64,000 nt of DNA from assembly GCA_039715015.1 (NCBI GenBank), contig JBDLIE010000007.1, forward strand, positions 23,402 to 87,401, written 5' to 3'. A model generated the notes under the pieces. It saw nothing but the letters and a program-made list of their open reading frames with translations, ran no database searches and was not told the origin of the DNA. A program made the position numbers and the translations under genes. Shown here in pieces: positions 30,389-61,452 of this stretch (position 1 is its first letter; each line of letters starts with the position of its first letter). This DNA is from Thermodesulfobacteriota bacterium. Lineage in GTDB: Bacteria; Desulfobacterota; Desulfobulbia; Desulfobulbales; SURF-16.

Positions 30389-30760
30389 CTAGGCAGCCAC
30401 ATCTCCATCTGAATTGGCAATCTTTTGAGGTTGCTCAACCTCAATTTTCCGCGGAACCAGTCCACTGGCCATGAAGGCGGTGCATTGCTTGCGCTTATCA
30501 AAAGAACAGTCAGTGATATTCCAACAAGGGGTATATTGCAGGAGCTTCTTAATGGCAGCGATGGAGATTCCCTGATCATGAATCATGCTCCGGAGACACT
30601 CGATCCACTTAATATCATCCATGGTAAAATAACGCCATTTACCCTTTCTAATTGGCCTGATCAGACCTTCCTTCTCATAGATTCGGAGAGTACGCGGGTG
30701 TACCTCCAGCATCTTTGCAGCAACACCGATTGTAAAGATTGGTTTATTGTCTGAGAGCAT
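30389..30760 (-). CDS. MerR-family (HspR-like) regulator with Cys-rich tail, copy 1
   Basis: FTIGVAAKMLEVHPRTLRIYEKEGL HTH; PCWNITDC-x7-C. Confidence 0.88.
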   Translation of the reverse strand: MLSDNKPIFTIGVAAKMLEVHPRTLRIYEKEGLIRPIRKGKWRYFTMDDIKWIECLRSMIHDQGISIAAIKKLLQYTPCWNITDCSFDKRKQCTAFMASGLVPRKIEVEQPQKIANSDGDVAA

Positions 30761-30860: not shown

Positions 30861-32045
30861 TTAGTGGGAGCCATGGTCGTCAAAGGCGCGACCGAAGAAA
30901 CGCTCGCCGAGTAAGAAGGTGGCACCAACGACCCCGATGCCGGCAAATGTAACCATTAACTCGGAAACAGAAGGTACATAGCTGAAGTAGGTGGGCAGAT
31001 TATCCCAACCTGAGTAGTGAGGCACAAGCTGGCCGGCGACTACCAGGTCATAGCGGGAGAAGAACTGGCCAACCAGGGTCATAAAGGCTGCCAGAGTCAT
31101 GGCAGGAGCGCTCTTTAACCTGGTCATAGTAAGAAGACCAAGGGGAAAGGCAAGACCGATAAGGATCTCGAAAACCCAGAAGTTAAAGGACAGAGGTCCG
31201 GAGGTCAGGGCCATGGCAGCTACACGACCGCCTTCAGCACCACCGACGAAGAAGGAGATGAATCTCCAGGCCGTGGCAACACAGATGAGGAACATGGTAA
31301 GGGTAAGGACCTTACCTGCAGACTGCATACCAGCCATGGTGGTGGAGTCAATTTCACGATTACGCATCTTGAAAGCCATGTTGGTGAAAAGAATGGCAGC
31401 AGCAGCGCCAGACATAAAGGCACTACAGAGAAAGTAAACAGGAAGCTGAGAACCGTACCAGAAAGGATGGCCGGAAAGGGTAGCAAAAACAGCACCCAAG
31501 TTGGTGTTGGCAGCAACCTCGGCAAGGGCACCGAGAACGCCCAGGGTTACGGCAATCTTGTATTGCTTGTTAAGGATGAGATAGAACTCAAGGAGCATAA
31601 AGCCAACCGCCATACCGTACAGGGTACCCATCCACCAGATATTGGAAGTCAGGTTGGGGCTCAGCATATTATAGATGAGCATACGGTGGGGGTTTTCAAT
31701 CTCCACACCAATAATGGTGAAAGCACCGATAATGGTGATAATGGAGAGCCAAACCATGCGGTTCGCAAGGGGAGCCAGCTTGTTGCCGCCGAAGATATGG
31801 CTGATGGCCGCCAACAGGCAAAGGCCTGTGGAGGTAATTGCGAAAAATGCGTAGGAGGAAATCAGAATACCCCAAGGCATTTCGCGAGTATTATTGTACA
31901 TGTGATGGTGGCCTTCGTAGAACGCATAAAGGCCTGCTGAAATACCTGCAATGGCGAGCAGGGCAAAAAGACCGGTTGCTATATTGATCTTTGCTGTTGC
32001 CACCTCTGGTTCCGCGACTGCGGCTAGTGAGAATCCGTTAGCCAT
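30861..32045 (-). CDS. NrfD/PsrC-family quinone-interacting membrane protein, paralogue 1
   Basis: ~10 TM helices, MPWGILISSYAFF, SPNLTSNIWWMG, RYDLVVAGQ; AAGGAGG RBS favours ATG 32045 (track 32051). Confidence 0.88.
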   Translation of the reverse strand: MANGFSLAAVAEPEVATAKINIATGLFALLAIAGISAGLYAFYEGHHHMYNNTREMPWGILISSYAFFAITSTGLCLLAAISHIFGGNKLAPLANRMVWLSIITIIGAFTIIGVEIENPHRMLIYNMLSPNLTSNIWWMGTLYGMAVGFMLLEFYLILNKQYKIAVTLGVLGALAEVAANTNLGAVFATLSGHPFWYGSQLPVYFLCSAFMSGAAAAILFTNMAFKMRNREIDSTTMAGMQSAGKVLTLTMFLICVATAWRFISFFVGGAEGGRVAAMALTSGPLSFNFWVFEILIGLAFPLGLLTMTRLKSAPAMTLAAFMTLVGQFFSRYDLVVAGQLVPHYSGWDNLPTYFSYVPSVSELMVTFAGIGVVGATFLLGERFFGRAFDDHGSH

Positions 32046-32166
32046 TTTCATTCCTCCTTTGAATTAGTAAAAAGCTTATTTCGGTAGCCGTTTGGGCTAC
32101 ATTGTTTTTTTCTCTTAGAGGTGATCACGATCAGGCCGCCACCCAACCATGATCACTTTAAGAGCA

Positions 32167-32400
32167 TTAGACTTTGGCCGGGCCCTGCAAATCTTTTGTC
32201 TGCCCTTTTGTTGCCAGAGAGCAGAGAGCAATCACGGCGATAATGGCTGAAAAAGGACCAAGTGCAATAAACAGCACCAATGAGGTCACAAACCAAAAAG
32301 CCTCGCTTAAGTGGGCAAAACGCTTGCCAAGAGATGCAAGCAGATAAGCTTTGCCTCTTAAACCTTGATTTTTGCTGAGCAGATGAATTAAGGCACTCAT
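32167..32400 (-). CDS. Small membrane protein, first gene of the sigma54 nrfD-1 operon
   Basis: AGGAGG RBS before ATG 32400; hydrophobic hairpin FWFVTSLVLFIALGPFSAIIAVIALCSL. Confidence 0.7.
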   Translation of the reverse strand: MSALIHLLSKNQGLRGKAYLLASLGKRFAHLSEAFWFVTSLVLFIALGPFSAIIAVIALCSLATKGQTKDLQGPAKV

Positions 32401-32522
32401 ACCGGCCTCCTGTCGTTTCACTTGAGATTTTTAATTGGTAGGAAATCTCAAGGCCCATTGAGTAATGGATGGGCGTTTCTCGTTTCAGGTTTTTACCTGT
32501 TTTCTTGGTTGACTAGTTAAAT

Positions 32523-32538
32523 AGCAACGGGCATGCCA
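32523..32538 (-). promoter_or_regulatory. sigma54 (-24/-12) promoter of the nrfD-1 operon
   Basis: TGGCATGCCCGTTGCT, canonical GG-N10-GC spacing. Confidence 0.8.
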
Positions 32539-32669
32539 AACTCCGCCAAGAACTGTTATTTAAAAGGCCGAAAAATCCTAAAGCCCTATTTTATCGTTGA
32601 AAGAAAACCATACAAATGGCCCCTTCCAAGTTCTCCCAACACCCATCATGTCCATATTAATTACCCAAC

Positions 32670-32861
32670 ATGGCGCAACTTGCGCCATAGCAGCCACAGG
32701 TGTGCTGCGCAAAATGCGCCACTTTTGTTGCAAAAAACCGCCTCCTCACCAGCAGAAGCCTTAGAAAAACCCAATGATCACCGTTGTGGCATATCTAAAA
32801 AAATACAGGATTACAGCTTGTTACAACCCAAGAACACCAAAAGTGGCGCAATATGCGCCGC
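32670..32861. promoter_or_regulatory. Three candidate activator sites, motif A (GGCGCA-N3-TGCGCC)
   Basis: ATGGCGCA-ACT-TGCGCCAT 32670-32688; GCTGCGCA-AAA-TGCGCCAC 32704-32722; GTGGCGCA-ATA-TGCGCCGC 32843-32861. Confidence 0.7.
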
Positions 32862-33299: not shown

Positions 33300-33776
33300 T
33301 TAGTGACCACCGCCATGACCGGCATCATCAGGTCCGCCGTCACTATTAAGACGTTCAAAACCTTTGACGCCAATATGACAGAAGGTACACCGCTTATTTG
33401 AAGCAAAGGCCATATCGCCATCATGACATGCACCACAATACTTGCCAGCATAAAGTGATTCCATGGTGAAATCGTCATTCTGCTCGGCTACACCGGCTTC
33501 CATTTCAAAAATATCATCATGACAGCTGTCACATTCAAGTCCGGCACCCATGGTGTGAACCTTATGGGAGAAATCTACGGCTTTGACAGGTTTTACAAAA
33601 ATAATAGGAGCCTCTGGGCCATAGGTATCCTCATCATACTCTTCTTCTCCTACAGCTTGCCCACCACAGAAGAATAAGACTGCGCTAAACACCAAAACAG
33701 TCATCAAACTCAGAGCGCTTTTATCATTCAATTTCATTGCATTCCTCATGTATGTTTTAGCAGATAATTCATCCAA
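33300..33776 (-). CDS. Periplasmic triheme c-type cytochrome (c7/c3-like)
   Basis: Signal peptide; FSHKVH; CDSCH, CGACH, CTFCH; exact start uncertain. Confidence 0.88.
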   Translation of the reverse strand: MDELSAKTYMRNAMKLNDKSALSLMTVLVFSAVLFFCGGQAVGEEEYDEDTYGPEAPIIFVKPVKAVDFSHKVHTMGAGLECDSCHDDIFEMEAGVAEQNDDFTMESLYAGKYCGACHDGDMAFASNKRCTFCHIGVKGFERLNSDGGPDDAGHGGGH

Positions 33777-33875: not shown

Positions 33876-34634
33876 CTAATCATTCATATAGAAAACATTA
33901 GGAAGGGCGCCTGTCTCGGGACGAAGAACCCAAACCACTTTTTCCGGAGCATGAATCAGCTTGTAAGCCTTGCTGCTTGGATCGGTGAGATCACCAAAAA
34001 TACGAACATCAGCCGGGCAAGCTTCCATACAAGCAGTGAGCTTACCGTTAGACTCTTTAAGCTTTGTGTCGTAACAGAAGTTACACTTATCAACAGCCCG
34101 GTTTTCTTCTTTGAAATAACGAGCATTATAAGGACAAGCAGCCATACAGGTCTTACAACCGATACAACGCTTATAATCCATCTTAACGATACCAGTGACT
34201 TTGTCTTTAAAGGTAGCTGTTGTTGGACAAACGCGCACACAAGGCGGACGGTTACAATGGTTACAGAGAACAGGCATGAAGATTCGTTCTTTCTCTTCTG
34301 GCCCAATGGGACGTTCCTGCTCTAAAATAGTGGTACGGTAACCATATGCCGGGACGTGATTGGTGGTTTTACATGCTTCCAAGCAACGCTCACAGTCTAT
34401 ACAATGATTCTGACGCAGAACCATTGTATAATGAGGGCTGTAGGGAAATTTCTTGGCAGGACTCATACCACCTAAAGCACCCTGCGCATTATTAGCAGAG
34501 GTCAGAGACAATACACTTCCACCTAAAAAGACACCGGTGACGGAAAGGCCGAATTGTAAAAAACGACGACGCTCTTCAGAAGGTAAATTCTCAACACCCT
34601 CATTCTCGAGCTTTTCCAAATCTTTAACTTTCAT
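33876..34634 (-). CDS. Tat-exported 4x[4Fe-4S] electron-transfer subunit (NrfC/PsrB/DsrO-like)
   Basis: ERRRFLQ Tat motif; CIDCERCLEAC, CNHCNRPPCVRVC, CIGCKTCMAAC, CNFC...CMEAC. Confidence 0.9.
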   Translation of the reverse strand: MKVKDLEKLENEGVENLPSEERRRFLQFGLSVTGVFLGGSVLSLTSANNAQGALGGMSPAKKFPYSPHYTMVLRQNHCIDCERCLEACKTTNHVPAYGYRTTILEQERPIGPEEKERIFMPVLCNHCNRPPCVRVCPTTATFKDKVTGIVKMDYKRCIGCKTCMAACPYNARYFKEENRAVDKCNFCYDTKLKESNGKLTACMEACPADVRIFGDLTDPSSKAYKLIHAPEKVVWVLRPETGALPNVFYMND

Positions 34635-35627: not shown

Positions 35628-38027
35628 ATGGAAGACAGTCACAAGCAAGCCATCCCCACTAAAGTTGTTGACGCCCTCTTTACCGTCGACAGCAACTGGG
35701 AGATAATTTCATTTAATAGTGGTGCCGAAAAACTTCTTGGCCTTAAGAAAGAAGATATGATTGGCAAAAATTGCCATGAGGCCTTTAGCCAATACGAGCG
35801 CTTCACCAAAATGTGCAGCGTTTATGGCCCCCTGGCCTCCGGCCATGCCATGACCAACTTCCGGATGGTCATTGACAACCAGGACACAGACACTTCGATA
35901 GCTGTTGTCATTTCCGCAATTCCTCTGCCTGACATAAACGGCAATATAAGCGGCGCTGTTGTTACCTTTACTGAGGTTGAGGACACAGGGCACACCAACG
36001 ACCTGGCCATGGACTCGGTTGCTGATGGCGTGTTTACCGTGGATCGTGACTGGCACATTACATCATTTAATAAGGCGGCCGAAGCTCTCACCGGCTGGTC
36101 TCGCAAAGAAGTTCTTGGCCATAAATGCCATGACATTTTCCATTCCAGCATGTGCGGCGACCAATGCAGCCTTGCCAAATCGATTCAAGACAAAAACACC
36201 ATCATCAACCACAGCCTGACAATTACGACAAAGGATGGCCACAAAACCCCTATCTCAATCAGTGCCGCCCCCCTTCTTGACCCAGGCGGCAATGTCATTG
36301 GTGGTGTAGAAACGTTTCGTGACATTACCGCCACCATGAAAAACGACCTGATCCTTGACTCGGTGGCGGATGGCGTGTTTACCGTGGATAATGATTGGCA
36401 AATCACCTCATTTAATAGGGCTGCCGAGGCTATTACAGGCTGGAAACGTGAAGAGGTAGTTGGCAAAAAATGCAGCGGCATTTTCCATTCATCGGTCTGC
36501 GGCGACCAGTGCATACTTAACCAGGCCATTGGCCTTGGCTCAGAAATAGTCGATCGATCTATCTTTGTTAAAAACAAGGAAGGATCAACCGTCCCTGTAT
36601 CGATCAGCGCCGCGCCACTCCTGGACCTTGAGGGTAATGTTATCGGCGGCGTAGAAACTTTCCGCGACATTACCGCTACCATCAAAAATGATTTGATCAT
36701 TGACTCGGTTGCCGACGGCGTTTTCACCGTTGATCGCAACTGGCAGATCACTTCCTTTAATAGGGCTGCCGAACTTATCACCGGCTGGCATCGTGATGAT
36801 GCCATTGGTAAATACTGCAGCGATGTTTTTCATTCATCAATCTGCGGCAAATCCTGCGCCATCGCTCAATCGATGTATAGCGGTAAACCTGTAACCAACC
36901 GCTCTATATCCATTGAAACCCGAGCCGGCAAAGAGCTGCCCATCTCTATCAGTGCAGCTCCCCTTTTGGACCATGAGGGCAATGTTCTTGGCGGCGTTGA
37001 GACTTTCCGCGACCTCTCCATCCTTGACAGCCTCCGTAAACAGCTGACCATGCGCTACACCTTTGATGAAATTATCTCAAAGAGTCCATCCATGCAGCGC
37101 ATCTTCAATATCCTGCCGGAAATTGCCCGCAGCCCCAGTAATGTTCTCATTTTAGGGGAGAGCGGCACCGGTAAAGAACTTGTAGCCCGGGCCATCTTTA
37201 ACGCTTCATCCCGCAGCAATAAGCCCTTTATCACTGTTAATTGCGGCGCCCTACCAGACACCCTTCTTGAATCAGAACTTTTCGGCTACAAGGCCGGCGC
37301 CTTCACAGACGCCAAACAGGACAAGAAAGGACGTTTTGCGGCAGCTGAAGGCGGCACCCTATTCCTCGATGAAATTGGTGATATACCCGCATCACTTCAG
37401 GTTAAACTCTTAAGGGTGTTGCAGCAGAAAATCTACGAGCCACTGGGCTCAAACGAACCAGTTAAGGCAGATGTTCGCATTATTACCGCTACAAATAGAG
37501 ATCTCCAGGCCCTTGTTAAAGAAGATGCCTTCCGAGAGGACCTCTTTTACAGGCTTAATGTCGTAAAAATAAAATTACCCCCTCTTAAAGAAAGGATGGA
37601 GGATATCCCTCTTCTCATTGAACATTTCACATCCAACTTCAGTGCCCAACAGGGCAAAGATATTGTCGGCATTTCGGATGAAGCACTTGCCATCCTTATG
37701 CATTACGACTTTCCCGGAAATATTCGCGAACTTGAGAATGTCATTGAGTATGGCTTTATTCTTTGCCCTGGTGGTTTCATCCTGCCCGAACATCTCCCTG
37801 AGCCATTTGCCCCTAATGGCGACCAAAAGCCTCAAGCCGGCACCTTAATTCCCATGACAGGCATTGTTTCTCAAACTCTTGAAGAACTTGAACAAACTGC
37901 CATTGCCGCCTCTCTGGCCAAAAACAAATGGAAAAAGATGGCAACCTGCCGCGAACTTGGCATCTCAAAGGACACCCTGCGTCGTAAAATTAACAAATAT
38001 GGCTTTACACCTGACGACAACGGCTAA
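35628..38027 (+). CDS. sigma54-dependent activator with four PAS domains (PASx4-AAA+-Fis HTH)
   Basis: GESGTGKE, ESELFG, GAFTDA, FLDEIGD, LFYRL, C-terminal HTH; PAS repeats at 345-nt period. Confidence 0.93.
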   Translation: MEDSHKQAIPTKVVDALFTVDSNWEIISFNSGAEKLLGLKKEDMIGKNCHEAFSQYERFTKMCSVYGPLASGHAMTNFRMVIDNQDTDTSIAVVISAIPLPDINGNISGAVVTFTEVEDTGHTNDLAMDSVADGVFTVDRDWHITSFNKAAEALTGWSRKEVLGHKCHDIFHSSMCGDQCSLAKSIQDKNTIINHSLTITTKDGHKTPISISAAPLLDPGGNVIGGVETFRDITATMKNDLILDSVADGVFTVDNDWQITSFNRAAEAITGWKREEVVGKKCSGIFHSSVCGDQCILNQAIGLGSEIVDRSIFVKNKEGSTVPVSISAAPLLDLEGNVIGGVETFRDITATIKNDLIIDSVADGVFTVDRNWQITSFNRAAELITGWHRDDAIGKYCSDVFHSSICGKSCAIAQSMYSGKPVTNRSISIETRAGKELPISISAAPLLDHEGNVLGGVETFRDLSILDSLRKQLTMRYTFDEIISKSPSMQRIFNILPEIARSPSNVLILGESGTGKELVARAIFNASSRSNKPFITVNCGALPDTLLESELFGYKAGAFTDAKQDKKGRFAAAEGGTLFLDEIGDIPASLQVKLLRVLQQKIYEPLGSNEPVKADVRIITATNRDLQALVKEDAFREDLFYRLNVVKIKLPPLKERMEDIPLLIEHFTSNFSAQQGKDIVGISDEALAILMHYDFPGNIRELENVIEYGFILCPGGFILPEHLPEPFAPNGDQKPQAGTLIPMTGIVSQTLEELEQTAIAASLAKNKWKKMATCRELGISKDTLRRKINKYGFTPDDNG

Positions 38028-38180: not shown

Positions 38181-38627
38181 TCACCCAGGTGACACTTGCT
38201 TTTTTCCAGGCTTGACCTTTTTTTGTTTCTGTTTGTCTTCAGCCTTAGCCCGCTTGCGATCTTCTTCATCACCTACACGGTGCAATGATCTTGGCACAGC
38301 CCAATCTATCTTGGCCTGACAACACTCATGAACGTTCTTAGGACACTCTGCAATATCCCAGCAGGGTACCAAGGTCAAAAGTTTCTTCAGGCCAGGTATT
38401 GAAATACCTTGGTCATGAATTATTGAGCGTAAGCATTCGATCCACTGAATATCGTTTGGTGAATATAATCTTCTAGAGCCACTATGCTGAGCTGGCTTTA
38501 CCAACCCCTCAGCTTCATAAATACGAAGAGTTCGAGGATGGACACCAAGAAGTTTTGCCGCTACCCCGATGGGATAAATTGGCAAATCAGCCCTTAATGG
38601 CTTTACTTCTGATTTTTTTCGCGCCAT
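38181..38627 (-). CDS. MerR-family (HspR-like) regulator with Cys-rich tail, copy 2
   Basis: YPIGVAAKLLGVHPRTLRIYEAEGL; WIECLRSIIHDQGISI; PCWDIAEC-x6-CC. Confidence 0.88.
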   Translation of the reverse strand: MARKKSEVKPLRADLPIYPIGVAAKLLGVHPRTLRIYEAEGLVKPAQHSGSRRLYSPNDIQWIECLRSIIHDQGISIPGLKKLLTLVPCWDIAECPKNVHECCQAKIDWAVPRSLHRVGDEEDRKRAKAEDKQKQKKVKPGKKQVSPG

Positions 38628-38718: not shown

Positions 38719-39912
38719 TTAATGATCCTCAGACAGATGGCCCTTAAAGAGCTGCTCGCCCATAAGGAACATCATGCCACAAAGACCCATTGCGCCAACC
38801 ACGATAGCGATCTCGTGGAATGTTGGCATATAGGAAAAGAGATGGGGAAGATCAATAATACCCATGCCATGAAAATGGGGCACAAGCATACCAACAACAA
38901 CCAGATCATAGCGCATAAAAAAGATGCCGATAACACTGGATACAGATGCGATAAACAGCCCGGTCATGGACTTGGCACGTACTGCAAGGATGATGACAAA
39001 GGGAATCACCAGACCCATCATGACCTCTCCGATCCAGAAATTAGTGGCATATGGCCCGGAAATGAGGCTCATCATAGCTTCATATTTTCCTGGAGGCTGA
39101 CCACTCACACCGGAAATCATCTTCCAGCAGGTGAAGAACATAATAACAGTGATCAGCAATGCGCCAAGCTTAGCAGTGGAGCTCAAGGAACTCTTAAGCT
39201 TGTCGCTCATTTCCCAACCATTGGCCTTATAGGCAATCCAGGTAAAAAAGACCACGGCAGCACAGCCTGACATCATGGCAGAGGTAATGAAGTAAATAGG
39301 CATATAAGGGCCATGCCAGAACTCACGACCACTGAGGAGCCCAAATACGGCACCCAGGTTAGAATGGGCAGCAATACCAGCAACCACACCGGCAAGACCC
39401 AGCATACCAGCTTCCTTATGCTTACCCATCTGCAATAAGGCAAACTCAATAAGCATAAAGAAAAGATAGGCGCCATACAGGGTGCCCATCCACCAGATAT
39501 TGGATGTTAGGTTAGGTGAAGTCAAATTATAGATAGCCATACGCCAAGGGTTTTCAATTTCGAACCCGATGACGAGAAAGCCAGCAATAATTGTGGAAAT
39601 GGCCATAAAAACAGAACGTTTGGCAATGGGCTGAAATTGTTCAACACCAAAGACATGACCAATTGAAGACACCAGACACAGTCCGGTGGAAGTTACTACA
39701 AAAAAAACATAAGCGGCGATAAGCAGACCCCATGGCACATCACGAGTGTTACCAAAGGCGTGGTCATGACCGATAAAGAAGGCATGAAAACCTGCGGCCA
39801 CACCAACAAGAGCCAAAAGACCCATTATTGCAATAGCTGCGTTGTACTTACCGGAAGTGGAAACTTCTAGCCCCTGATCTTGGGGCAATACTTTAGCGAG
39901 AATATTATTCAT
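38719..39912 (-). CDS. NrfD/PsrC-family membrane protein, paralogue 2
   Basis: VPWGLLIAAYVFF, SPNLTSNIWWMGTLYG shared with paralogue 1, RYDLVVVG; GAGGAG RBS before ATG 39912 (track 39927). Confidence 0.88.
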   Translation of the reverse strand: MNNILAKVLPQDQGLEVSTSGKYNAAIAIMGLLALVGVAAGFHAFFIGHDHAFGNTRDVPWGLLIAAYVFFVVTSTGLCLVSSIGHVFGVEQFQPIAKRSVFMAISTIIAGFLVIGFEIENPWRMAIYNLTSPNLTSNIWWMGTLYGAYLFFMLIEFALLQMGKHKEAGMLGLAGVVAGIAAHSNLGAVFGLLSGREFWHGPYMPIYFITSAMMSGCAAVVFFTWIAYKANGWEMSDKLKSSLSSTAKLGALLITVIMFFTCWKMISGVSGQPPGKYEAMMSLISGPYATNFWIGEVMMGLVIPFVIILAVRAKSMTGLFIASVSSVIGIFFMRYDLVVVGMLVPHFHGMGIIDLPHLFSYMPTFHEIAIVVGAMGLCGMMFLMGEQLFKGHLSEDH

Positions 39913-40003
39913 TACGCTACTCCTCACATTTCATTTTTTTTTGGGGTTCAGCAGGTTCCTCTTTGAGTCCTGCCTCATCTGTAAAAACAATTTTCTGCGT
40001 TTC

Positions 40004-40129
40004 TCAAAAATGTCGGAAATTCTCTTCATCCTCCCGACATGTTAGAATTACAGGCTTGACCTTAAGGTCAAACAAGGTGTGGAGTGCAGCGCAACCAATC
40101 CAAAAAACGAGAAAAAATACGCCTTCCAT
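40004..40129 (-). CDS. Unannotated 41-aa small membrane protein upstream of nrfD-2
   Basis: AAGGAGGAG RBS then MEGVFFLVFWIGCAALHTLFDLKVKPVILTCREDEENFRHF*. Confidence 0.55.
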   Translation of the reverse strand: MEGVFFLVFWIGCAALHTLFDLKVKPVILTCREDEENFRHF

Positions 40130-40374
40130 TTGCTCCTCCTTGATTAATTCTGGCCATGAATTCCAGCAGCCCAAGCTCCTCCTACCAAGAAAAAATTGAA
40201 CTGAACAATGTACCCATGGATCTTTATTAGGAATGAAATGCCATAAACATTTCCAACGGTTCGATGATTGGCGGATCTTCTCACCGTTTCCCCTGAATTC
40301 TTTCTTTTGTCTCCAAGTTCCTCCTTTGAAATTGTTGTCGACTGAAAATTTATTTTTTTAGCATATACTGACAT

Positions 40375-40403
40375 ACCCTAAACTTGTAAATCGACGTTGT
40401 CAA
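40375..40403 (-). promoter_or_regulatory. Putative sigma70 promoter of the nrfD-2 operon
   Basis: TTGACA-N17-TAGGGT. Confidence 0.5.
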
Positions 40404-40585
40404 CTTTTACATCATTTTTAATGCATTTTAATCCCTAAACCACAATATCAACATATTTAGAATAGCGCAATTTCTTCTTAATGGTGAAGTTATAATTTCC
40501 ATTTTTTTCCAATATTACAACGACTTATTAAATAATTAATCCTTATTTTTCAATACTTTTTTCTCCATCCAGCTCATAAGAATGC

Positions 40586-40628
40586 TACAGCTCCCAAGTG
40601 GCGCACAATGCGCCACTTGGGAGCTGTA
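40586..40628. promoter_or_regulatory. Perfect 20-bp-arm palindrome centred on activator motif A
   Basis: TACAGCTCCCAAGTGGCGCA-CAA-TGCGCCACTTGGGAGCTGTA, followed by a TGGCGCA half-site. Confidence 0.7.
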
Positions 40629-40754
40629 TGGCGCAAAACAATCCCAAAATTACAGCCAACCTCTCACCCCACCTCACAGCAAAAACAACAAGACATACCT
40701 TTAACTACCTGTTCTAAGGGAACTCTTATCACAAAACGTCTTTCTAATTATTTC

Positions 40755-40770
40755 TGGCACATAAAGTGCT
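40755..40770 (+). promoter_or_regulatory. sigma54 promoter
   Basis: TGGCACATAAAGTGCT, GG-N10-GC. Confidence 0.75.
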
Positions 40771-40780
40771 TTATTAAAAA

Positions 40781-40862
40781 GACAAAGCTTACTCATTTGC
40801 TAAACGAGAAAGCGACTCCTTGCACTGAACCCCTGGGTGGCGGCCCGGGGGTTCTCTTTTTT
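40781..40862 (+). ncRNA. Candidate sigma54-dependent small RNA (~80 nt) with anti-SD seed
   Basis: Starts at the predicted +1 of the sigma54 promoter; no ATG-initiated ORF; GACTCCTT seed; ends in GAACCCCTGGG/CCCGGGGGTTC hairpin + TCTTTTTT. Confidence 0.55.
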
Positions 40863-40932
40863 CAAGCCCCTTCTTTCCCGCCTTTCCCCCCACTCCTTTA
40901 CCTTTTCAGCGTTTTATGTTTTATTTTCTCCA

Positions 40933-40962
40933 TTGACGGCCCCCCTCTATTTATTCTATTTT
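40933..40962 (+). promoter_or_regulatory. Putative sigma70 promoter for ftsH-1
   Basis: TTGACG-N18-TATTTT downstream of the sRNA terminator. Confidence 0.4.
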
Positions 40963-41049
40963 TCTACGAGCACGCTGCTCTTCCCATTTGGCTCACATTG
41001 CACCTGGCTTAAAATACGCCCTTTCATCTAAACAGCGAGGAGAACCCCT

Positions 41050-42828
41050 TTGAATCTTTTTTACAAGAACCTCACCATCTGGCTCATTATTGGACTTACT
41101 GCTATCCTTGTCCTCAATCTTTTCAAAGGGCAGCCTGAAACGGTCAACGTTCTTAGTTACACAGAATTTGTTAATAAGGTTAAAAGTGGGGTTGTCACTA
41201 ACTTTTCGCTTAGTAAAAATACAGCGTCCTGGAAAGACTCTAATGGTGCACGTTTTCGCTCTGTTATTCCTGAGGACCCTTCTGCTGTTCAACATTTCCT
41301 TGACGCAGGCGCTAAAATCGAGGTCATCCCCACCCGCGAACCCAATTGGTTTATCCGTACACTCCTCTCCTGGTTCCCCATCCTTATTCTGGTTGCCATC
41401 TGGTTCTTTTTTATGAGAAAAGGCAGCAATCAAGGCGGTGGTGGCAAGGCCATGGCCTTCGGCAAGAGCAAGGCCCAATTAATTGATGCCCAGGAATCCA
41501 ATGTCCGCTTTAAAGACGTTGCCGGTATTGATGAGGCAAAAGAAGAGCTTGTAGAAATTGTCGATTTCCTTAAAGATCCAACTAAATTTACCGAAGCTGG
41601 GGCCCGTATTCCTACAGGGGTACTCCTTTATGGTGAACCAGGAACAGGCAAAACCCTTCTTGCCAAAGCAATTGCCGGTGAGGCTGGAGTTACCTTTTTT
41701 TCCATCAGTGGTTCCAATTTTGTTGAGATGTATGTGGGAATCGGCGCCAGTCGTGTCCGGGACCTTTTTGCTGAAGGTAAAAAGAAGGCGCCTTGCATTA
41801 TCTTTATTGATGAGATTGACGCAGTTGGTCGGCACCGAAGCTCTGGGGCTGCCGGTGGTAACGATGAACGCGAGCAGACGTTAAACCAGCTCTTGGTTGA
41901 GATGGATGGCTTTGAAGTCAACGATAAGGTTATCATTGTTGCCGCCACTAACCGACTCGACATCCTTGACCAGGCCCTGCTCAGGCCTGGCCGTTTCGAT
42001 CGCCAGGTTATGGTCCCTCTCCCTGATGTCCTTGGTCGTGAACATATCCTTAAGGTCCATGCCGAAAAGATCAAGGCATCTCCAGACATTGACTGGAAAA
42101 CCGTTGCCAAATCCACTCCTGGTTTCTCTGGGGCTGAACTTGCCAATATGATTAATGAGGCTGCCTTAATGGTTGCCCGCCGCGGCGGCAACGTCACCAT
42201 GGACGACCTAGATGCCGCCAAGGATAAGGTGATGATGGGGGCAGAACGCCGCTCCATGATTATCACAGAAGAGGAGAAAAGAATTACCGCTTACCACGAA
42301 GTGGGCCATGCCCTGGTGGCATGGATGCTTCCTGGCGCTGACCCTGTACATAAGGTGACCATTGTCCCTAGGGGGAAAGCCCTAGGGCTTACCATGCAGC
42401 TTCCAGAAACCGAGAAGCATTCCCACTCGTACACCTATCTCTTCAACAACCTCTGCACCCTTCTTGGTGGTCGTATCGCCGAAGAGCTTATCTTTGATGA
42501 AATAACCACTGGTTCCGGCAATGACATCGAGCGAGTTAGTGATCTGGCCCGCAAGATGGTATGCGAGTGGGGCATGAGTAAGAATATTGGCCCCATTGTG
42601 TTCAAGGCTGCAGAGCAACCTGGCGCCACAAACCCCCTGGTTAGTGAAGAGTCAATTAAAGAGATCAATTCTGAGATCAAAGACCTTGTGGACACAGCCC
42701 ATGACACAGCCCGCAAAATCTTAACGGATAATATGGCAATTATGGAAGCCATCACCGAAGAGCTGCTTGAAAAAGAAACCATTTCAAACAGAGACATCCA
42801 GGTCATCATTGATCAGCATAAAACCTGA
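41050..42828 (+). CDS. ftsH: ATP-dependent zinc metalloprotease FtsH, paralogue 1
   Basis: 2 [46 protein letters not shown]. Confidence 0.95.
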
Positions 42829-55929: not shown

Positions 55930-57369
55930 ATGAAATGTGAACTCACCACCCAAACCATTCAGGGCTTATCGCCCAAAAAGGCCCGTTATCTTTGCTGGGA
56001 TATCTCAAGCCCAGGATTCGGAGTCAGGGTGACCCCTAAGGGTGCCAAAACCTTTATCTATAAATATAAGATCGGGGGGCAAACCAGGTGGATCACCTAC
56101 GGCCAGTTCCCAGACCTCTCCCTGGCTGAGGCCAGAAAAAAATATTCCACCCACAAGAAGGCTGTAGAAAATGGCGGTGACCCTGGCCAGACAAAAACCG
56201 ATCTCAATTTTCAAACCATAAATGCCTTGGCACCTCGGAAAACACGTTTTATCCAGTGGGACAGAAAAAACCCCGGCTTTGGAGTCCGCGTGACCCCCCG
56301 AGGGATAAAAACCTTTGTTTTCAAATACACATCCGATGGCAGATCCAGGTGGATCACTTACGGCCAATTTCCAGCCTTGTCCCTAGCCGATGCCAGGAAA
56401 AAATATTTAGTTGATAAAGGGGCTGTAGCAAATGGCGCTGACCCTGGCAGGACTAAGCAAGAGGACAAGCACCAACGCATCACAAACCCTACCGGCAAAG
56501 AGCTGGTAAAGCTTTTCTGCGAAGGGTACACCAAGCCCCGGCCCAGCACCATGGCAGAATATAAACGCACCCTTGAGGTCGATTTTGTACCAGCGCTAGG
56601 CAGCCTCAAGTCGGCCGACATCAATCGCCGCGACATCCGCAACTTGATATTCAAAAAGGCCAAAACGGCCCCTGTGGCCGCTAACAGGCTCTTGGCGGCC
56701 ATTGGTGTCATGTTCACCTGGGCCATTAAAGAAGAGTACCTTGACGCCTCGCCTTGTGTGCTGATTGACAAACCCCACCAAGAAAAATCTCGCGACCGGG
56801 TCTTAAACAATCAAGAAATTGCTTCATTAATGGCCTGGTCACATCCCAGCACTACCAACATTCTTCTTAAATTAATCTTGCTTACCGTTAAGCGCCCAGG
56901 GGAATGGCGCTTGGCCAAGTGGCAGCATGTCGATTTCAAAAAGCAGACCTTTTTCGTCCCGGCTGAAAACTCCAAAAACCGCCATGAATATCTGACCCCC
57001 CTGCCCCCCTCCTCCATAAAACTCTTAAAAAAGCTACCTACCCATAGCGAATACATTTTCCCAGGCCCTAAGACCGATGAACCCATGACCAAAACGGGCG
57101 TTTGCCGCTTCATGGCCCGGCATTATGCTGACATGAAAATTGAGAAGGCAACCCCGCACGACCTAAGGCGGACAGCAGTGACCAACCTGGCAGAGTTGGG
57201 CACGCCTTTCCATGTCATCAAGAAGCTGGAAGGCCACAAGGACGGCAGCGTGGAGGCGATTTATAATAGATATGACTATCAGCCGGAAATGAAAAGTGCC
57301 CTGAGAAAGCTTGAGAATAAGATTTTGACCAAGCCGGCACAGGGGAAGGTGGTAAGCCTGTTTGGGTGA
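55930..57369 (+). CDS. Tyrosine integrase with two tandem N-terminal arm-DNA-binding domains
   Basis: Two ~87-aa repeats PGFGVRVTP.G.KTF..KY...G..RWITYGQFP.LSLA.ARKKY; catalytic R (KRPGE), K (SKN), HDLRR, GH, Y. Confidence 0.92.
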   Translation: MKCELTTQTIQGLSPKKARYLCWDISSPGFGVRVTPKGAKTFIYKYKIGGQTRWITYGQFPDLSLAEARKKYSTHKKAVENGGDPGQTKTDLNFQTINALAPRKTRFIQWDRKNPGFGVRVTPRGIKTFVFKYTSDGRSRWITYGQFPALSLADARKKYLVDKGAVANGADPGRTKQEDKHQRITNPTGKELVKLFCEGYTKPRPSTMAEYKRTLEVDFVPALGSLKSADINRRDIRNLIFKKAKTAPVAANRLLAAIGVMFTWAIKEEYLDASPCVLIDKPHQEKSRDRVLNNQEIASLMAWSHPSTTNILLKLILLTVKRPGEWRLAKWQHVDFKKQTFFVPAENSKNRHEYLTPLPPSSIKLLKKLPTHSEYIFPGPKTDEPMTKTGVCRFMARHYADMKIEKATPHDLRRTAVTNLAELGTPFHVIKKLEGHKDGSVEAIYNRYDYQPEMKSALRKLENKILTKPAQGKVVSLFG

Positions 57370-57399
57370 ATGGGCAGCAAGCAAACCGCCCATACGACA

Positions 57400-57808
57400 C
57401 TATGGCTCCCCGGCTCCCGTGGCCCAGGTATCAATCGGCAGATTAAAATACTGAATGGTACTGTTTAAACGGAGCCAGTATTTCTGGTCCTTTGGCTTTT
57501 CAAGGATGAGCACCACCCCCGCCCGCTTGCCGGTCTGTAACGAGTAATAAAGGCTCTACCCAATGGCCTCCGCCCATTTACTGCCAAAATCATGTTCTAT
57601 GGCGTGGGTGGCGGTGAGGCAATCCACTCTTATCCTGTCAGCCAGCACCACCTCTGTCTTGCCGCCGACCTCTGCGCACCATTTGCCTTGATACTATTTT
57701 TCTGGGTGGTCCATGCCCAGCAAAGGATAAAGCGGGCAGTAAAATAATTAAAATTACCGCTAGTAAAGCAAGGCTACCAGAAAATACCTTTTTGCTTTGC
57801 GGGTCCAT
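57400..57808 (-). pseudogene. Disrupted gene for a secreted restriction-endonuclease-fold-like protein
   Basis: Signal peptide from ATG 57808, one frameshift near 57710, then HPEK*YQGKWCAEVGGKTEVVLADRIRVDCLTATHAIEHDFGSKWAEAIG*SLYYSLQTGKRAGVVLILE...DTW with two in-frame TAG. Confidence 0.7.
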
Positions 57809-58131
57809 TAGACCTCCTCTTGGGCTCCATCTCACCTAACAATGTGGCGCCATACTTTCAGTTGAATATTTCACTGTAAGTTGTTAGCATTTAATGTAAA
57901 TTCCTAAAAAAATGCCACCAACAAGAAACCTGCGCTACTGTTATTCAACACCATCATATCTATAATTATAACGGTTTCCTTGCTGCAAAATGCTCTCGCT
58001 ATCTTAAAAAATCTCTTGCAAGGGAGCGGTAGCATTTCAGAAGTACAATGATGTATCTGATTTTTTTTTGCTCAGTGACAGATATTTCCAGGCATCTACC
58101 GAAAAAAAACATGGATCTTTTTAGACAAAAC

Positions 58132-58177
58132 GTGCAACTATATTTTAGTTGCACTGTTTTTTTACCGAGAGTATAAA
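58132..58177 (+). promoter_or_regulatory. hicAB operator palindrome and promoter
   Basis: GTGCAACTA-TATTT-TAGTTGCAC overlapping TTGCAC-N17-TATAAA. Confidence 0.65.
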
Positions 58178-58183
58178 CACACA

Positions 58184-58432
58184 GTGTCAAAAATAGACAA
58201 AATAATTGCCAGGCTTAAGTCACGCCCCAAAGATTTTACATGGGACGAGCTCACAAGGGTCATGTTTCATTTTGGATATACCCAACTTGAGGGAGGTGGG
58301 TCCCGCGTTAAGTTTTTTCACAAAGACAAGATGAGTGTTTTTAATCTTCACCGGCCTCACAAACCTAAAATATTGCGTGGGTATCAGATCAAAGAAGCAC
58401 TAAGCCGCCTGGAAACGGATGGATTTATATGA
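58184..58432 (+). CDS. hicA: HicA-family toxin
   Basis: PKDFTWDEL...FGY...GGGSRVKF...LHRPH...YQIK. Confidence 0.85.
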   Translation: MSKIDKIIARLKSRPKDFTWDELTRVMFHFGYTQLEGGGSRVKFFHKDKMSVFNLHRPHKPKILRGYQIKEALSRLETDGFI

Positions 58433-58932
58433 AAAACAAGACCATGACATACCAAGGCTATATAGGATCAGTTGAGTACGATATAGAGGATGAATTCCTT
58501 TATGGAAAAGTCCTTCATGTCAATGACACCGTCACATTTGAATCAACGACTATAGCTGGTTTAAAAAAAGAATTCATAGCAGCTGTTGATGACTATCTCG
58601 CCACCTGTAAACAAATAGGGAAAGAGCCCCAAAAAAGCTTCAAAGGCTCTCTAAATATTAGACTCGGTGAATCTGCACACAGGAAAGCCGCTATATGTGC
58701 TGGCAACCAAGACATTACCCTCAATGATTTTATTAAGAATGCAGTCTTAGAGGCAGTAAATAAAGATCAAAAGGCAGCCTCCGCACCTAAGGTTAGGTTT
58801 ACAGAGACTCCTGAATATTCATCTATGATTAAACCAAGAGATATTGTTGAGGATTTGATTCCCCCTGAGAAACAGGTGGTATGCCATTTTCAAATTTCAA
58901 ATCTCAGTGACGACAACTCAAGAGTACATTAA
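58429..58932 (+). CDS. hicB: HicB-family antitoxin with C-terminal extension
   Basis: YQGYIGSVEYD...AVDDYL...EPQKSFKGSLNIRL...H; ~55 extra residues after the RHH; ATGA overlap with hicA. Confidence 0.87.
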   Translation: MKNKTMTYQGYIGSVEYDIEDEFLYGKVLHVNDTVTFESTTIAGLKKEFIAAVDDYLATCKQIGKEPQKSFKGSLNIRLGESAHRKAAICAGNQDITLNDFIKNAVLEAVNKDQKAASAPKVRFTETPEYSSMIKPRDIVEDLIPPEKQVVCHFQISNLSDDNSRVH

Positions 58933-58936
58933 AAAA

Positions 58937-59386
58937 ATGATTAATCACGTTTGGTCTGTTCTTTGTCAGCAAACTATAGTAGACGCGAGGACCGGGGCCA
59001 CCACTCATGTCAACACGGTAAATGGGGCTTCTTTTTTTGAAGATGAAGAAAACCTTATACTTCCCCCTTTAGTAATTTCTACCAGGTGGGCAAAAGAAGA
59101 TACCACCAACGCAGAAACCACAGAGATCAGGGTCAGGATTGATCCTCCAGAGGGACGCGACAAGATCAAGATCGGTCAAGGAACAATTACACTAGGGACT
59201 GATCAGCATGGCATAAACTCAAATATTGAGGTTGCCCACCTAAGACTAAAAAGCGGTGGACGTTATTCTTTCCTGGTTGACCATCGAGATCCTGTGAAAA
59301 AAACTAGATGGAAAACAGTGGCAAAATTGCCAATAGACGTAAAATTAGTTCCCTCTCCAGAGAAAGAAGCGAACGAAAACGACTAG
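58937..59386 (+). CDS. Hypothetical beta-rich (DUF6941-like) protein, third gene of the hicAB operon
   Basis: ATG 4 nt after the hicB stop; WSVLC...D..TG pattern and alternating beta strands, G.Y.F.V. Confidence 0.6.
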   Translation: MINHVWSVLCQQTIVDARTGATTHVNTVNGASFFEDEENLILPPLVISTRWAKEDTTNAETTEIRVRIDPPEGRDKIKIGQGTITLGTDQHGINSNIEVAHLRLKSGGRYSFLVDHRDPVKKTRWKTVAKLPIDVKLVPSPEKEANEND

Positions 59387-59420
59387 TAGAGACCGTCCAG
59401 GGCAACCACTCCCCCCTCTT

Positions 59421-59624
59421 TTAAAAAATACTATTTTTCCAAAGGTTGTTAATGGCCCACCTGAACACCTCGACGGTATCAAATTGGGCCGGCTTGCCTT
59501 TGCCTTCAGCTTTCTTCTTAACCGGACACCCACGCCTGACCCATGAGTCTATTGTCGTTTTCGCCACCCCAAAAATGAAGGCCACCTCGGCCCGATTCTT
59601 TATCCTATCTTCCGGTTTACGCAT
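59421..59624 (-). CDS. Minimal lambda gpNu1-like terminase small-subunit DNA-binding domain
   Basis: NRAEVAFIFGVAKTTIDSWVRRGCPV...GKG....FDT..V..W parallels the gpNu1 winged HTH; only 67 aa. Confidence 0.8.
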   Translation of the reverse strand: MRKPEDRIKNRAEVAFIFGVAKTTIDSWVRRGCPVKKKAEGKGKPAQFDTVEVFRWAINNLWKNSIF

Positions 59625-59694
59625 TTTCTACCCCCTTTTAAAGAAGTAGTGGGCATAGTGGGATTTCCAAAAAAATCTATGCCTAGCCCGATTT

Positions 59695-59740
59695 CGCGAT
59701 GCGGATTACCTGCACTGCATATCCCCCCAGAAGGACCCGT
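59695..59740 (-). other. Candidate lambda-like cos site (cosQ plus putative cosN)
   Basis: Minus strand ACGGGTCCTT...CGCG; GGGTCCT (59732-59738) equals lambda cosQ; lies immediately upstream of the nu1-like gene. Confidence 0.55.
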
Positions 59741-60166
59741 TAACTCCTTGATATTGCAACTGTTTACCAGGAGTGGCCAGGCAGTATGAGCTGACAAGGG
59801 TCAATCGTTCAATATCGGAAAATTGAGCCCCGTAACACCCTCCACACTACATTGGAAAATTCAAACCACCCAACGACACCCTTTAGGGTCGTTTAAGCCC
59901 GGGGATGCATTGTTTTCTACGAAGGTTACCCATTTTCCTAGCCTAAGGGAAAGTGCCAGCCCGGCGGCATTGCCGGGCTGGCTTGCAGTCCATGGCCTAA
60001 AATGCGGGAATGCGGCCCGCCAGGTGGCACCATGAACCTAAAACAAGCCACCTGTTTGGTGCCGTGGCACAGGGAGAAAGGGCATGCCAGAGCCCCCCGG
60101 TGAGCAATGCCACGGCAATAAACAGCTCACCTATCCGACGACGGGGCAACCCCACCGCCGAATTTT

Positions 60167-61240
60167 TTAGACGCCGTCATTATTAAAAGCAAAGCTCTCG
60201 GGATGGCGGAGGGCGATGTCGCAGCTTTGCATCGCTAAAATTTCGATACTGCCCGCCAGGCTGTGCTTATAAGGATTCGGCAAAATTTCCAAACCGCCCC
60301 AAAGGCCAACAAGTAAATCTTGCCAATTTCCAAAAAAAACATCCCCACTGCTCACCTGGTTGGTGACGCCAGTTTTGTAGCCGTTCAACGAATTTTGGTT
60401 TTTGGGACCTTCATCCCAAACCATAACCCCTGACCCGCTGAATTTTTCAGTCGTTCTCAGGCTGCCGCGCATGGAAGGCTCGACAAGATAGCCAGAGTTA
60501 GAAAGCAAGGTGTTGTTGTCAACGGCCACTGCGGTCTCCATTGCCACAATCTCAGGCCAGGTTGGCACGGCAGCGGCGAAGAAGGTTGGGGTATTAATAC
60601 CCGCAGTATTCGCAATACCAGTAGGCTGGCCAGAGGTACCAGAGCCATAAAGGGCAGCCAGATCGATGGCGGCGGCTATACCTTCCGCGAGGTCATTCCG
60701 AATCATATTTTCAACATCAAAGGATGCCTGGATTAAAAGTTGCCGGGTGGCGATGCTATACGCACCGAGTGATTTCGGGGTCAGGGTAACCTGATCAAAA
60801 GCGGGCTCGCTTTGGGCCGCATCACCGCCTTCACTGACAATCCAGGTAGCGGCGCTTCCACTGGTTTTACGTGGAATGGCCACATTGCCGGTAAGGTCTG
60901 ACAAGATGGTGGCACCCATGCCCATGACCACGGACTGGTTGCGCAACACATCGATAAAGGAACCGGAAAGGAGATTATTGGCCACCAGATGCCCACCCGC
61001 AGTAGTGACACCCACGGATAAATCTCTGGCAAACAAAACATCGTTTGGGACCATCAGGCCGCGAGGACTAATCCCCGCCTGTTTTGCTGCGGCGGCAGAG
61101 CACTCAAGCTCAAAGCCAGCAGCGTCCCGATATTTCAAAGGTTCAATTTGAGCCAGAATGGCCCGGCAAAATGAATATTTTTTTGCCTCGGCATTGTTCA
61201 GGCCAATACCACGATAGTTAATATTTGCTAATTTCGTCAT
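60167..61240 (-). CDS. HK97-fold phage major capsid protein (stand-alone)
   Basis: AGGHLV, FIDVLRN, FDQVTLTPK, AIDLAALYGSGTSGQPTGI, FFGNW, DIALRHPESF; GAGGA RBS. Confidence 0.9.
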   Translation of the reverse strand: MTKLANINYRGIGLNNAEAKKYSFCRAILAQIEPLKYRDAAGFELECSAAAAKQAGISPRGLMVPNDVLFARDLSVGVTTAGGHLVANNLLSGSFIDVLRNQSVVMGMGATILSDLTGNVAIPRKTSGSAATWIVSEGGDAAQSEPAFDQVTLTPKSLGAYSIATRQLLIQASFDVENMIRNDLAEGIAAAIDLAALYGSGTSGQPTGIANTAGINTPTFFAAAVPTWPEIVAMETAVAVDNNTLLSNSGYLVEPSMRGSLRTTEKFSGSGVMVWDEGPKNQNSLNGYKTGVTNQVSSGDVFFGNWQDLLVGLWGGLEILPNPYKHSLAGSIEILAMQSCDIALRHPESFAFNNDGV

Positions 61241-61452
61241 GGATATATCCTCAATTAAAAAAATTGCCGCGACAGGCTTCGGCGGATGGATTCCGTGACA
61301 GGCCCGGAATATATAAAAGCGGCTTCAGGAGGGGGGGCCAATCTGGTTCCTACAGATTGACACTGCCGAGGCCACAATCCCCGAGAGCTAGATTCCCCCC
61401 ACCTTTAGCCTTTGACCAGGGACAGGAGGCCTGTCCACCTGGCCTTGGTCAA

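Follow-up and report, generated by a model that had tools for sequence, protein, structure and literature searches.

A conserved sigma54-type small RNA locus with predicted loop–loop and ribosome-binding-site pairing to a divergent NrfD operon

The locus and the predicted small RNA

The DNA analysed here is a 64,000-nucleotide (nt) window of contig JBDLIE010000007.1 from a Thermodesulfobacteriota bacterium (genome label G000, 99.99% complete), and all coordinates are positions in this window. The locus holds two parallel operons, one with a 77-amino-acid (aa) open reading frame (ORF), nrfD-1 and merR-1, the other with orf41, nrfD-2 and merR-2, and divergent from the latter lies the predicted small RNA (sRNA) gene that is the subject of this report, as listed in Table 1. 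The initial annotation had described a sigma54 promoter with upstream motif-A activator sites, followed by about 80 nt free of ORFs that end in a GC hairpin and U-tract, and had read the element as an sRNA co-induced with nrfD-1 that silences the sigma70-driven nrfD-2 operon. The sequence observation was confirmed, mostly as described: the sigma54 box is present, a perfect motif A lies 157 nt before it, and the hairpin (40827–40854) is followed by a U-tract that runs to 40862. The interpretation is partly supported, as comparative analysis strongly favours its core while details differ, and the specificity element is likely to be a loop–loop contact that the annotation had overlooked.

A covariance model of the sRNA detected one copy in 17 of 41 relatives and a single copy in 33 of 151 genomes of the order, and it matched 51 of 80 nrfD-2 loci together with one genome of another family. 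After removal of duplicates, of L234 (whose match is the nrfD-1 leader, not the sRNA) and of loci without orf41 or nrfD-2 sequence, 67 distinct loci in 17 clusters were retained; G003, with its split contig, was left out of the 66-locus counts. Gene order at the locus is conserved, the sRNA being always divergent from orf41–nrfD-2(–merR), with ftsH next downstream in 48 of the 67 loci. The 84-nt unit folds with a z score of −3.07, only 2 of 200 shuffles being equally good, and in an alignment fitted to the structure model (A2) 16 of 19 pairs show changes on both sides, a level reached by 0 of 500 shuffles. The 3' hairpin behaves alike in a plain, unfitted MAFFT alignment (A1), where 9 of its 12 pairs change on both sides, in agreement with A2. 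Within A2, 10 of the 12 pairs of hairpin P2 carry compensatory changes while the top of its stem is fixed, and pairing in stem P1 reaches 84%. A U-tract was found in 51 of the 67 loci.

No ORF of at least 20 aa begins and ends within the sRNA on the + strand, and the only long ORF that overlaps it (134 aa, 40608–41012) is interrupted by stops in relatives. The unit is non-coding in this sense, and its conserved sigma54 box and covarying hairpin point to a promoter and a 3' end of its own. Rfam 15 gave no match at the gathering score in the 64-kb window and only chance-level matches in 40500–41100. A model of the hairpin alone, run against 101 genomes of the order and 151 of the phylum, found strong matches confined to this locus, which excluded a generic genome-wide hairpin handle; among 22 other matches inspected, two were this locus and the remainder lacked an upstream sigma54 box. 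A possible pseudoknot joining the loops of P1 (GCCA) and P2 was also discarded, the motif being present in only 37 of 67 loci, with no covariation possible, and being superseded by the intermolecular match described below.

Loop and seed complementarity to the orf41–nrfD-2 transcript

The conserved P2 loop UGGCGG has an exact complement, CCGCCA, in the loop of a hairpin in the 5' untranslated region (5'UTR) of the orf41–nrfD-2 mRNA, situated 145 nt before the orf41 start in this genome and 28–167 nt before it across loci. CCGCCA occurs in the orf41 5'UTR of 62 of 66 loci against 1.4 expected from dinucleotide shuffles, and the remaining four read CCGCUA, which is compatible through a G–U wobble, kin being not independent in these counts. 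The hexamer forms a hexaloop, and 66, 65 and 65 of the 66 loci keep its first, second and third closing pairs, respectively; the closing pairs comprise up to six pair types, and the first three include 25 G–U and no A–C, indicating that the stem folds on the mRNA strand. Both RNAs present complementary hairpin loops on covarying stems. In G263 the sRNA loop GAGCGG faces a target CCGCUA, which gives one compensatory A–U pair. CCGCCA was not enriched before nine other genes of the locus (0–4 each of 21–67), and coding regions held no convincing conserved site for the loop. Where an sRNA is adjacent and enough sequence is available, all 51 named loci had the target loop, as did 12 of 18 loci without an adjacent sRNA. 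Complementarity is confined to the loop and short seeds, with the sRNA and the target hairpin about 500 nt apart, unlike the cis-encoded, fully complementary arrangement of CopA and RNAI. Extra orf41–nrfD-2 copies (L302, the second copy of G015; L198; L214) have no sRNA beside them and still retain the CCGCCA hairpin, as would be the case for trans targets. Hfq, the chaperone type associated with Qrr and MicF, was not found in this genome or in five of five others, and ProQ was not found here, in a search that covered these two proteins and not KhpA/B or other chaperones.

The linker seed pairs with the nrfD-2 ribosome-binding site (RBS) at 12 of 13 positions, including two G–U, and with the nrfD-1 RBS over only 6 nt, both as counted in the initial annotation. 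The proposed 9/9 pairing with the PilZ-like RBS also exists, but the match is weaker in relatives having a PilZ-like gene, so that this target is unsupported. The two 8-nt matches assigned to the 5' part are likewise present; the CAUUUGCU match to orf41 is not conserved, and GCUUACUC, which matches the hmcD-like start, sits in stem P1, the hmcD-like gene being absent from the fetched relatives and this target likewise unsupported. Among 2603 start regions predicted by our own gene caller in this genome, the PilZ-like gene ranked 4th, nrfD-2 43rd (62nd with accessibility), orf41 70th, ftsH-1 125th and nrfD-1 1211th, so that in this genome alone the seed is not very selective; the annotation had itself cautioned that sequences directed against the Shine–Dalgarno (SD) element match many RBSs by chance.

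Differential signals were observed across genomes, where cognate seeds were compared with permuted ones using one locus from each of the 17 clusters, and again with a held-out set of 36 loci not used in defining the seed regions. The cognate advantage was largest for the linker with the orf41 RBS (z −5.2; held-out −4.2), followed by the linker with the nrfD-2 RBS (z −3.4; held-out −2.6), the 5' arm with the SD/spacer region of the nrfD-2 RBS (z −2.8; held-out −1.9) and the linker with the ftsH-1 RBS (z −2.0; held-out −3.4). The other 16 of 20 combinations, which include those with merR-2, the activator, nrfC, c7, the 77-aa ORF, nrfD-1 and merR-1, stayed at |z| of at most 1.6, no seed signal being seen for the nrfD-1 RBS (z −1.2). 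The seed that had been assigned to nrfD-2 does covary with it, but its best covarying target is the orf41 RBS. Examples of matching pairs are GCUUCUCCUU/AAGGAGAAGC (G012) and CUUGUCCUC/GAGGACAAG (G133) for seed and orf41, and GGGACAACA/UGUUGUCCC (G130) and CGCCUUUUCC/GGAAAAGGUG (G148) for seed and nrfD-2. Outside the order, four of five sRNA 5' ends match the SD–AUG spacer of their own nrfD-2 by 8–10 bp, a better match than at 69 or more of the 70 non-cognate nrfD-2 sites, G295 being the exception. The sigma54 box and hairpin are kept; the anti-SD seed is not invariant across families. Comparison of the sequences thus indicates that the orf41 and nrfD-2 seeds track their own targets across genomes, with no such signal for nrfD-1, the cluster tests being significant and the pair-wise phylogenetic tests weak; the loop remains the most specific feature of the complementarity to a separate mRNA.

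Promoters, second loop donor and neighbouring genes

Motif A (up to three mismatches) occurs in the intergenic region of 36 of 66 loci, compared with 1.1% of shuffles, and genome-wide (up to two mismatches) it was found at six intergenic places, four of which are at the sRNA and nrfD-1 promoters. On the orf41–nrfD-2 strand, 62 of 66 loci have TTGAC(A/T) 150–330 nt upstream of orf41 and none of the 66 has a sigma54 box, consistent with the sigma70 control claimed for the nrfD-2 operon. The separate sigma70-like promoter claimed for ftsH-1 did not hold up: only 12 of 48 loci have a match of at least 9/12, and its position varies. A motif-A/OrpR-like palindrome at 41006–41021 overlaps the −10 box that had been proposed there, and 20 of 48 loci, compared with 2.0 expected, have such a palindrome 43–107 nt ahead of the ftsH-1 start. 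A MerR/HAIR-type operator at the orf41 promoter was rejected, as the palindrome of this genome is not conserved. Further minus-strand sigma54 boxes at 50390, 48063 and 51151 precede ftsH-2, the c3/HmcB/HmcC-like genes and a 104-aa HmcD-like gene; a different upstream motif, of the GTGTGGC type, accompanies the last two.

The adjacent sigma54 activator is most likely the motif-A binder driving both promoters, and its signal is probably redox, as judged from its likeness to OrpR. OrpR of Desulfovibrio vulgaris is a PAS-containing sigma54 activator with C52/C61/C65, an acidic residue 54 and an Fe–S cluster, active at low redox potential and binding GGGCGYRTTTTGCGCCC, a site that resembles motif A (PMC8359166, accessible part). 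The two known targets of OrpR are orp operons, and that part of the paper mentions no sRNA, whereas the activator here, located among NrfD genes, has three PAS repeats of this kind. Its PAS repeats 2–4 carry the C-x8-C-x3-C cysteines at C167/176/180, C282/291/295 and C397/406/410, with the acidic residue at +2 in two of the three (D169 and D399; G in the second repeat). The co-induction of sRNA and nrfD-1 proposed in the initial annotation has the shared motif in its favour, and the identity of the activator would follow from its position and cysteines.

The genome has one further long hairpin with a UGGCGG loop, located in the nrfD-1 operon mRNA (32112–32164), and hairpins with a UGGCGG hexaloop precede nrfD-1 in 26 of 38 loci, compared with 0.2 in shuffles. 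In the G130 lineage, an 11–13-nt perfect complement of the orf41 RBS precedes this hairpin; in the cluster of the present genome, an anti-orf41 seed beside the nrfD-1 hairpin was not above background, 12–40 of about 66 non-cognate sites being better. Between nrfD-1 and the kissing hairpin, the G130 lineage (L121, L183, L197, L226, L228 and L241) has another conserved small hairpin, ACTCCCTGGCCGGGAGT. In the three distant genomes G325, G354 and G411 it is the small-ORF–nrfD-1 operon itself that forms the divergent sigma54 transcript, and its leader bears the loop(s) and an anti-nrfD-2 seed, a hint that duplication of the nrfD-1 operon leader may have given rise to the stand-alone sRNA. The nrfD-1 leader at 32460–32500 shares ACGAGA, and often a GCCA..ACGAG motif, with the P1 region at 40800–40812, perhaps through shared ancestry.

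Some other short RNAs were seen in the searches. L066 (G017) is a model match with an altered loop, GCCGTGGC, and no gene of the locus lies within 1.5 kb of it. L133 (G150), L134 (G106), L135 (G159), L136 (G141), L137 (G058) and L139 (G019) represent a different sigma54 short-RNA family, located away from nrfD, in which a CU-rich double anti-SD stretch, CTCTTATCTCCTTTCTCC, is combined with a U-tailed terminator. L088, L099 (G295), L090 (G191), L092 (G263) and L093 (G062), from other families of the phylum, make up a third group, whose short RNAs have sigma54 promoters, terminators and seeds of the CCCTCCTCTCC type. Sigma54-driven anti-SD sRNAs may be common in the phylum.

Among the neighbouring genes, nrfD-2 is 46% identical to nrfD-1, and orf41, which has no Pfam match, has F6, W10, H17 and T18 invariant in 48 rows. 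The Fe–S subunit and c7-type cytochrome are presumed to be shared by both NrfD proteins, and ftsH-1 may be a read-through gene or a third sRNA target. Three MerR/HspR-like paralogues were detected (38181–38627, 30389–30760 and C11:251–553 of G000); the two in the window end in a CW-x4-C-x6/7-C cluster that could bind a metal or an Fe–S centre. The 77-aa ORF–nrfD-1–merR-1 operon is tandemly duplicated in L109 (G022). At 55930–63471, ORFs that look integrase-like and phage-like by their N-terminal sequence alone suggest that the right end of the window holds a mobile element.

Table 1. Features of the locus, with window coordinates
Feature	Position	Strand	Remarks
Predicted sRNA	40781–40862	+	About 82 nt; start placed by sigma54 spacing and end by U-tract (both inferred); stem P1, linker, hairpin P2
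Stem P1	40787–40813	+	Arms 40787–40794 and 40806–40813; 76–84% of cells paired
Linker seed (anti-SD of the initial annotation)	40812–40824	+	Mostly unpaired in RNA fold
Hairpin P2 and U-tract	40827–40862	+	Conserved UGGCGG loop 40838–40843; kissing loop, probable terminator
Target hairpin, orf41–nrfD-2 5'UTR	40256–40287	−	CCGCCA hexaloop 40269–40274, exact complement of sRNA loop
Second UGGCGG hairpin	32112–32164	−	nrfD-1 operon mRNA, between 77-aa ORF and nrfD-1; no U-tract
Motif A enhancer TGGCGCA-N3-TGCGCCA	40599–40615		Inside 20-bp inverted repeat 40586–40628
Sigma54 −24/−12 promoter of sRNA	40755–40770	+	GG.A and TGC invariant in A1
Sigma70-type promoter of target operon	40375–40403	−	−35 40398–40403, weak −10 40375–40380
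nrfD-1 operon control region	32523–32860	−	Motif A 32671–32687, 32705–32721, 32844–32860; sigma54 box 32523–32538
orf41	40004–40129	−	Conserved 41-aa hydrophobic protein, first cistron of target operon; RBS 40132–40142
nrfD-2	38719–39912	−	Pfam NrfD; RBS 39916–39928
merR-2	38181–38627	−	MerR/HspR-like regulator, C-terminal cysteine cluster; third gene of target operon
Sigma54 activator	35628–38027	+	Four PAS domains, three with OrpR-type C-x8-C-x3-C spacing; candidate motif-A binder
NrfC/DsrO-like Fe–S subunit	33876–34634	−	Presumed partner common to both NrfD proteins
c7-type cytochrome	33300–33737	−	Presumed partner common to both NrfD proteins
77-aa ORF	32167–32400	−	First gene of nrfD-1 operon
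nrfD-1	30861–32045	−	Paralogous operon
merR-1	30389–30760	−	Paralogous operon
ftsH-1	41050–42828	+	One of four FtsH genes

Interpretation and comparison with known systems

Conservation, structure, loop complementarity, seed covariation, promoter types and the shared enhancer motif are established by computation, and from them we infer transcription, the 3' end, pairing in the cell, repression, the identity and signal of the activator and a protein swap. One enhancer protein, probably the adjacent OrpR-like PAS activator, would act with sigma54 to make both the sRNA and the 77-aa ORF–nrfD-1–merR-1 mRNA, and the sRNA would act in trans on the divergent sigma70 operon. The P2 loop would dock on the 5'UTR hexaloop so that pairing starts without Hfq, the linker would then cover the orf41 RBS and the 5' arm and/or linker the SD–AUG region of nrfD-2, and translation would be blocked, with the mRNA probably destabilised. 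A single signal, probably redox, would in this way bring NrfD-1 onto the shared Fe–S/cytochrome module and silence NrfD-2. The docking of a chaperone-free sigma54 antisense sRNA by loop–loop contact, masking the orf41 and nrfD-2 start regions while the paralogous operon is on, is given a probability of roughly 0.7. The full step, an exchange of the small-protein/NrfD/MerR set on the shared module with redox state, is held to be slightly better than an even bet. A wider scheme is put forward tentatively, with the odds somewhat against it: a chaperone-free RNA switch in which the NrfD messages lock via the fixed loop pair, the leader being the ancestral silencer and the sRNA its duplicate in Desulfobulbales, with RBS seeds that go on co-evolving with two cistrons, while FtsH-1 made by read-through may clear the old subunit and an Fe–S redox sensor would swap the quinone-facing one in an orphan respiratory complex.

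Several observations weigh against the docking and masking mechanism. The presence of the sRNA loop in 67 of 67 loci is a consequence of how the loci were selected, 16 of the 67 lack a U-tract, and the distance of the target loop from the orf41 start is variable. The sRNA loop is lost in L235 and L239 with the target hexamer kept, and a supposed co-loss of both loops there was withdrawn for that reason; these two loci retain the UGGCGG hairpin in the nrfD-1 leader. The folding model favours a U–G-closed tetraloop over the open hexaloop by 2.3 kcal/mol, a cost that should be smaller than the gain from six kissing pairs, and both target RBSs are predicted to be largely paired inside their own mRNA. 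Ranks within this genome are modest (nrfD-2 43rd–62nd and orf41 70th–203rd of 2603), and several homologues (G160, L215 and L185) pair weakly with both RBSs. Across 33 disjoint tree pairs the seed signal is weak (Wilcoxon p 0.014–0.044, sign test 0.047–0.084), controls give similar values (5' arm–activator 0.027, linker–merR-2 0.049, linker–nrfD-1 0.031), and a mirror-strand control barely cuts the linker–orf41 signal (z −4.9 vs −5.1). A second PAS activator, 47% identical, lies elsewhere in the genome, on C46 (C46:13392–16624). It adjoins a motif-A site and a gene that we take, from sequence resemblance, to be NifB/NifX-like, and its locus may be the true orp/OrpR locus.

A real pairing might also differ in sign or direction, the constitutive orf41 5'UTR hairpin capturing the sRNA and the nrfD-1 mRNA, or the sRNA opening the leader and activating; the symmetry of the kissing contact, the same loop on the nrfD-1 mRNA in 26 of 38 loci and the predicted occlusion of the target RBSs would suit such schemes, but the covarying seeds fall on the SD and SD–AUG spacer of orf41 and nrfD-2, which fits blocking, and the nrfD-1 RBS is without a seed signal in the cluster test, so that this alternative is considered unlikely. 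If UGGCGG/CCGCCA were instead one protein-bound motif on either strand, and the short RNA a decoy for a protein of the locus such as a MerR paralogue, the nearly equal folding of the target hairpin on both strands here (−11.1 vs −10.9 kcal/mol), the GTGGCG common to the loop and the motif-A half-site, and the confinement of strong hairpin-model matches to the locus would be accommodated; the wobble asymmetry nevertheless places the two hairpins on opposite strands, and a decoy leaves unexplained both the lineage-specific 8–10-bp matches to the nrfD-2/orf41 start regions and the loop compensation in G263, making it very unlikely.

The element being merely a 5' leader or attenuator of ftsH-1 is given slightly less credence than the decoy. 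Read-through into ftsH alone, named in the initial annotation as the outcome that would overturn an sRNA, is at odds with the 18 of 66 loci (5 clusters; at least 1.2 kb of downstream sequence or an ftsH match) in which no ftsH follows and the divergent orf41–nrfD-2 is always present, and with a complementary loop and seeds that lie on another transcript, though the 48 loci with ftsH-1, mostly without a conserved sigma70 promoter (12/48), the linker advantage for the ftsH-1 RBS and the missing U-tracts agree with it, and read-through may be an extra role. Lastly, a small hydrophobic ORF with a long structured 5'UTR, a divergent sRNA and no Hfq found recall a divergent type I toxin–antitoxin pair of the TisB/IstR, ShoB/OhsC or ZorO/OrzO type, with orf41 as a small membrane toxin. 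The layout of such pairs and their 18–21-nt complementarity are described in PMC3919570, but no continuous complement of that length exists here, the best helices having 7–13 bp (14-nt windows). The sRNA promoter would be activator-dependent whereas that of the putative toxin gene is of the sigma70 type; moreover, orf41 is the first gene of a respiratory operon whose layout recurs in its paralogue, 18 of 69 loci keep it without an adjacent sRNA, and nrfD-2 is a further predicted target of the sRNA, which renders a toxin–antitoxin pair highly improbable, the least probable of the readings considered.

Taken together, the comparisons indicate a real, conserved sRNA with a well-resolved predicted target and docking mechanism, in which a constant loop–loop handle would dock and variable seeds would block, offering an answer to how sRNAs may act without Hfq. 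To our knowledge, almost nothing is known of RNA regulation in sulfate-reducing and sulfur-disproportionating Desulfobacterota, or of base-pairing sRNAs without Hfq. The sRNA is apparently undescribed so far, no description having been found in a literature search with subscription journals largely outside its coverage, in which the one relevant sRNA item was a Desulfovibrio riboswitch RNA (10.1101/803072). In cultured species (L206, L208, L215, L229 and L236) both partners, the precise mutations and naturally occurring compensatory variants can be named, and the locus provides a traceable case of an sRNA that may have arisen from an mRNA leader.

The locus also points to a redox-controlled exchange of a membrane subunit in an uncharacterised NrfD complex. 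Orphan NrfD + Fe–S + cytochrome modules in Desulfobacterota (TMH1–DsrOhPh–tetrahaem) are described as of unknown function in PMC13047784, and in Dissulfuribacter (DITHS69_0266–0272) an NrfD beside regulators changes by log2 −6.9 and its Fe–S partner by −0.99 (PMC13490349), a pattern expected of a swappable subunit; the subunits described are of the same kinds as those predicted here. The terms 'small RNA' and 'MerR' are absent from the main texts of both papers.

Among characterised sRNAs, several partial parallels were observed. MicF is encoded divergently from ompC, the plasmid pairs RNAI/RNAII and CopA/CopT are cis-encoded and fully complementary, and Qrr and GlmY/GlmZ need Hfq or RapZ. MicF represses ompF translation in E. 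coli (PMC13501541) and s-SodF of Streptomyces derives from sodF mRNA and lowers sodN mRNA (PMC3919588); as predicted here, the RNA that accompanies one isoform acts at the RBS of the other to repress it. The present RNA differs in being sigma54-driven and divergent from its target, with a loop–loop contact, RBS seeds on two cistrons and no Hfq found, and Rfam revealed no sequence kinship to either. ColE1 RNAI/RNAII, R1 CopA/CopT and Staphylococcus aureus RNAIII recognise their targets through complementary loops and then extend the pairing (PMC3919570 and PMC4691137), as predicted here for the first contact, but RNAIII places CU-rich loops on RBS regions, whereas the hexamer here is fixed in a UTR hairpin of its own, 28–167 nt upstream of the start, and the RBS seeds evolve freely with their targets, unlike in those antisense RNAs. 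Qrr1–5 of Vibrio, as far as described in the sources, are short terminated RNAs driven by an enhancer protein and sigma54 that repress at the RBS, and GlmY/GlmZ are sigma54-dependent short RNAs; the enhancer protein, sigma54 promoter and short RNA are common features, but these are RNAs of Gammaproteobacteria unrelated in sequence to the one here. By the tests run, the sRNA belongs to none of the compared systems and resembles MicF and s-SodF in logic, CopA, RNAI and RNAIII in docking, and Qrr in its promoter.

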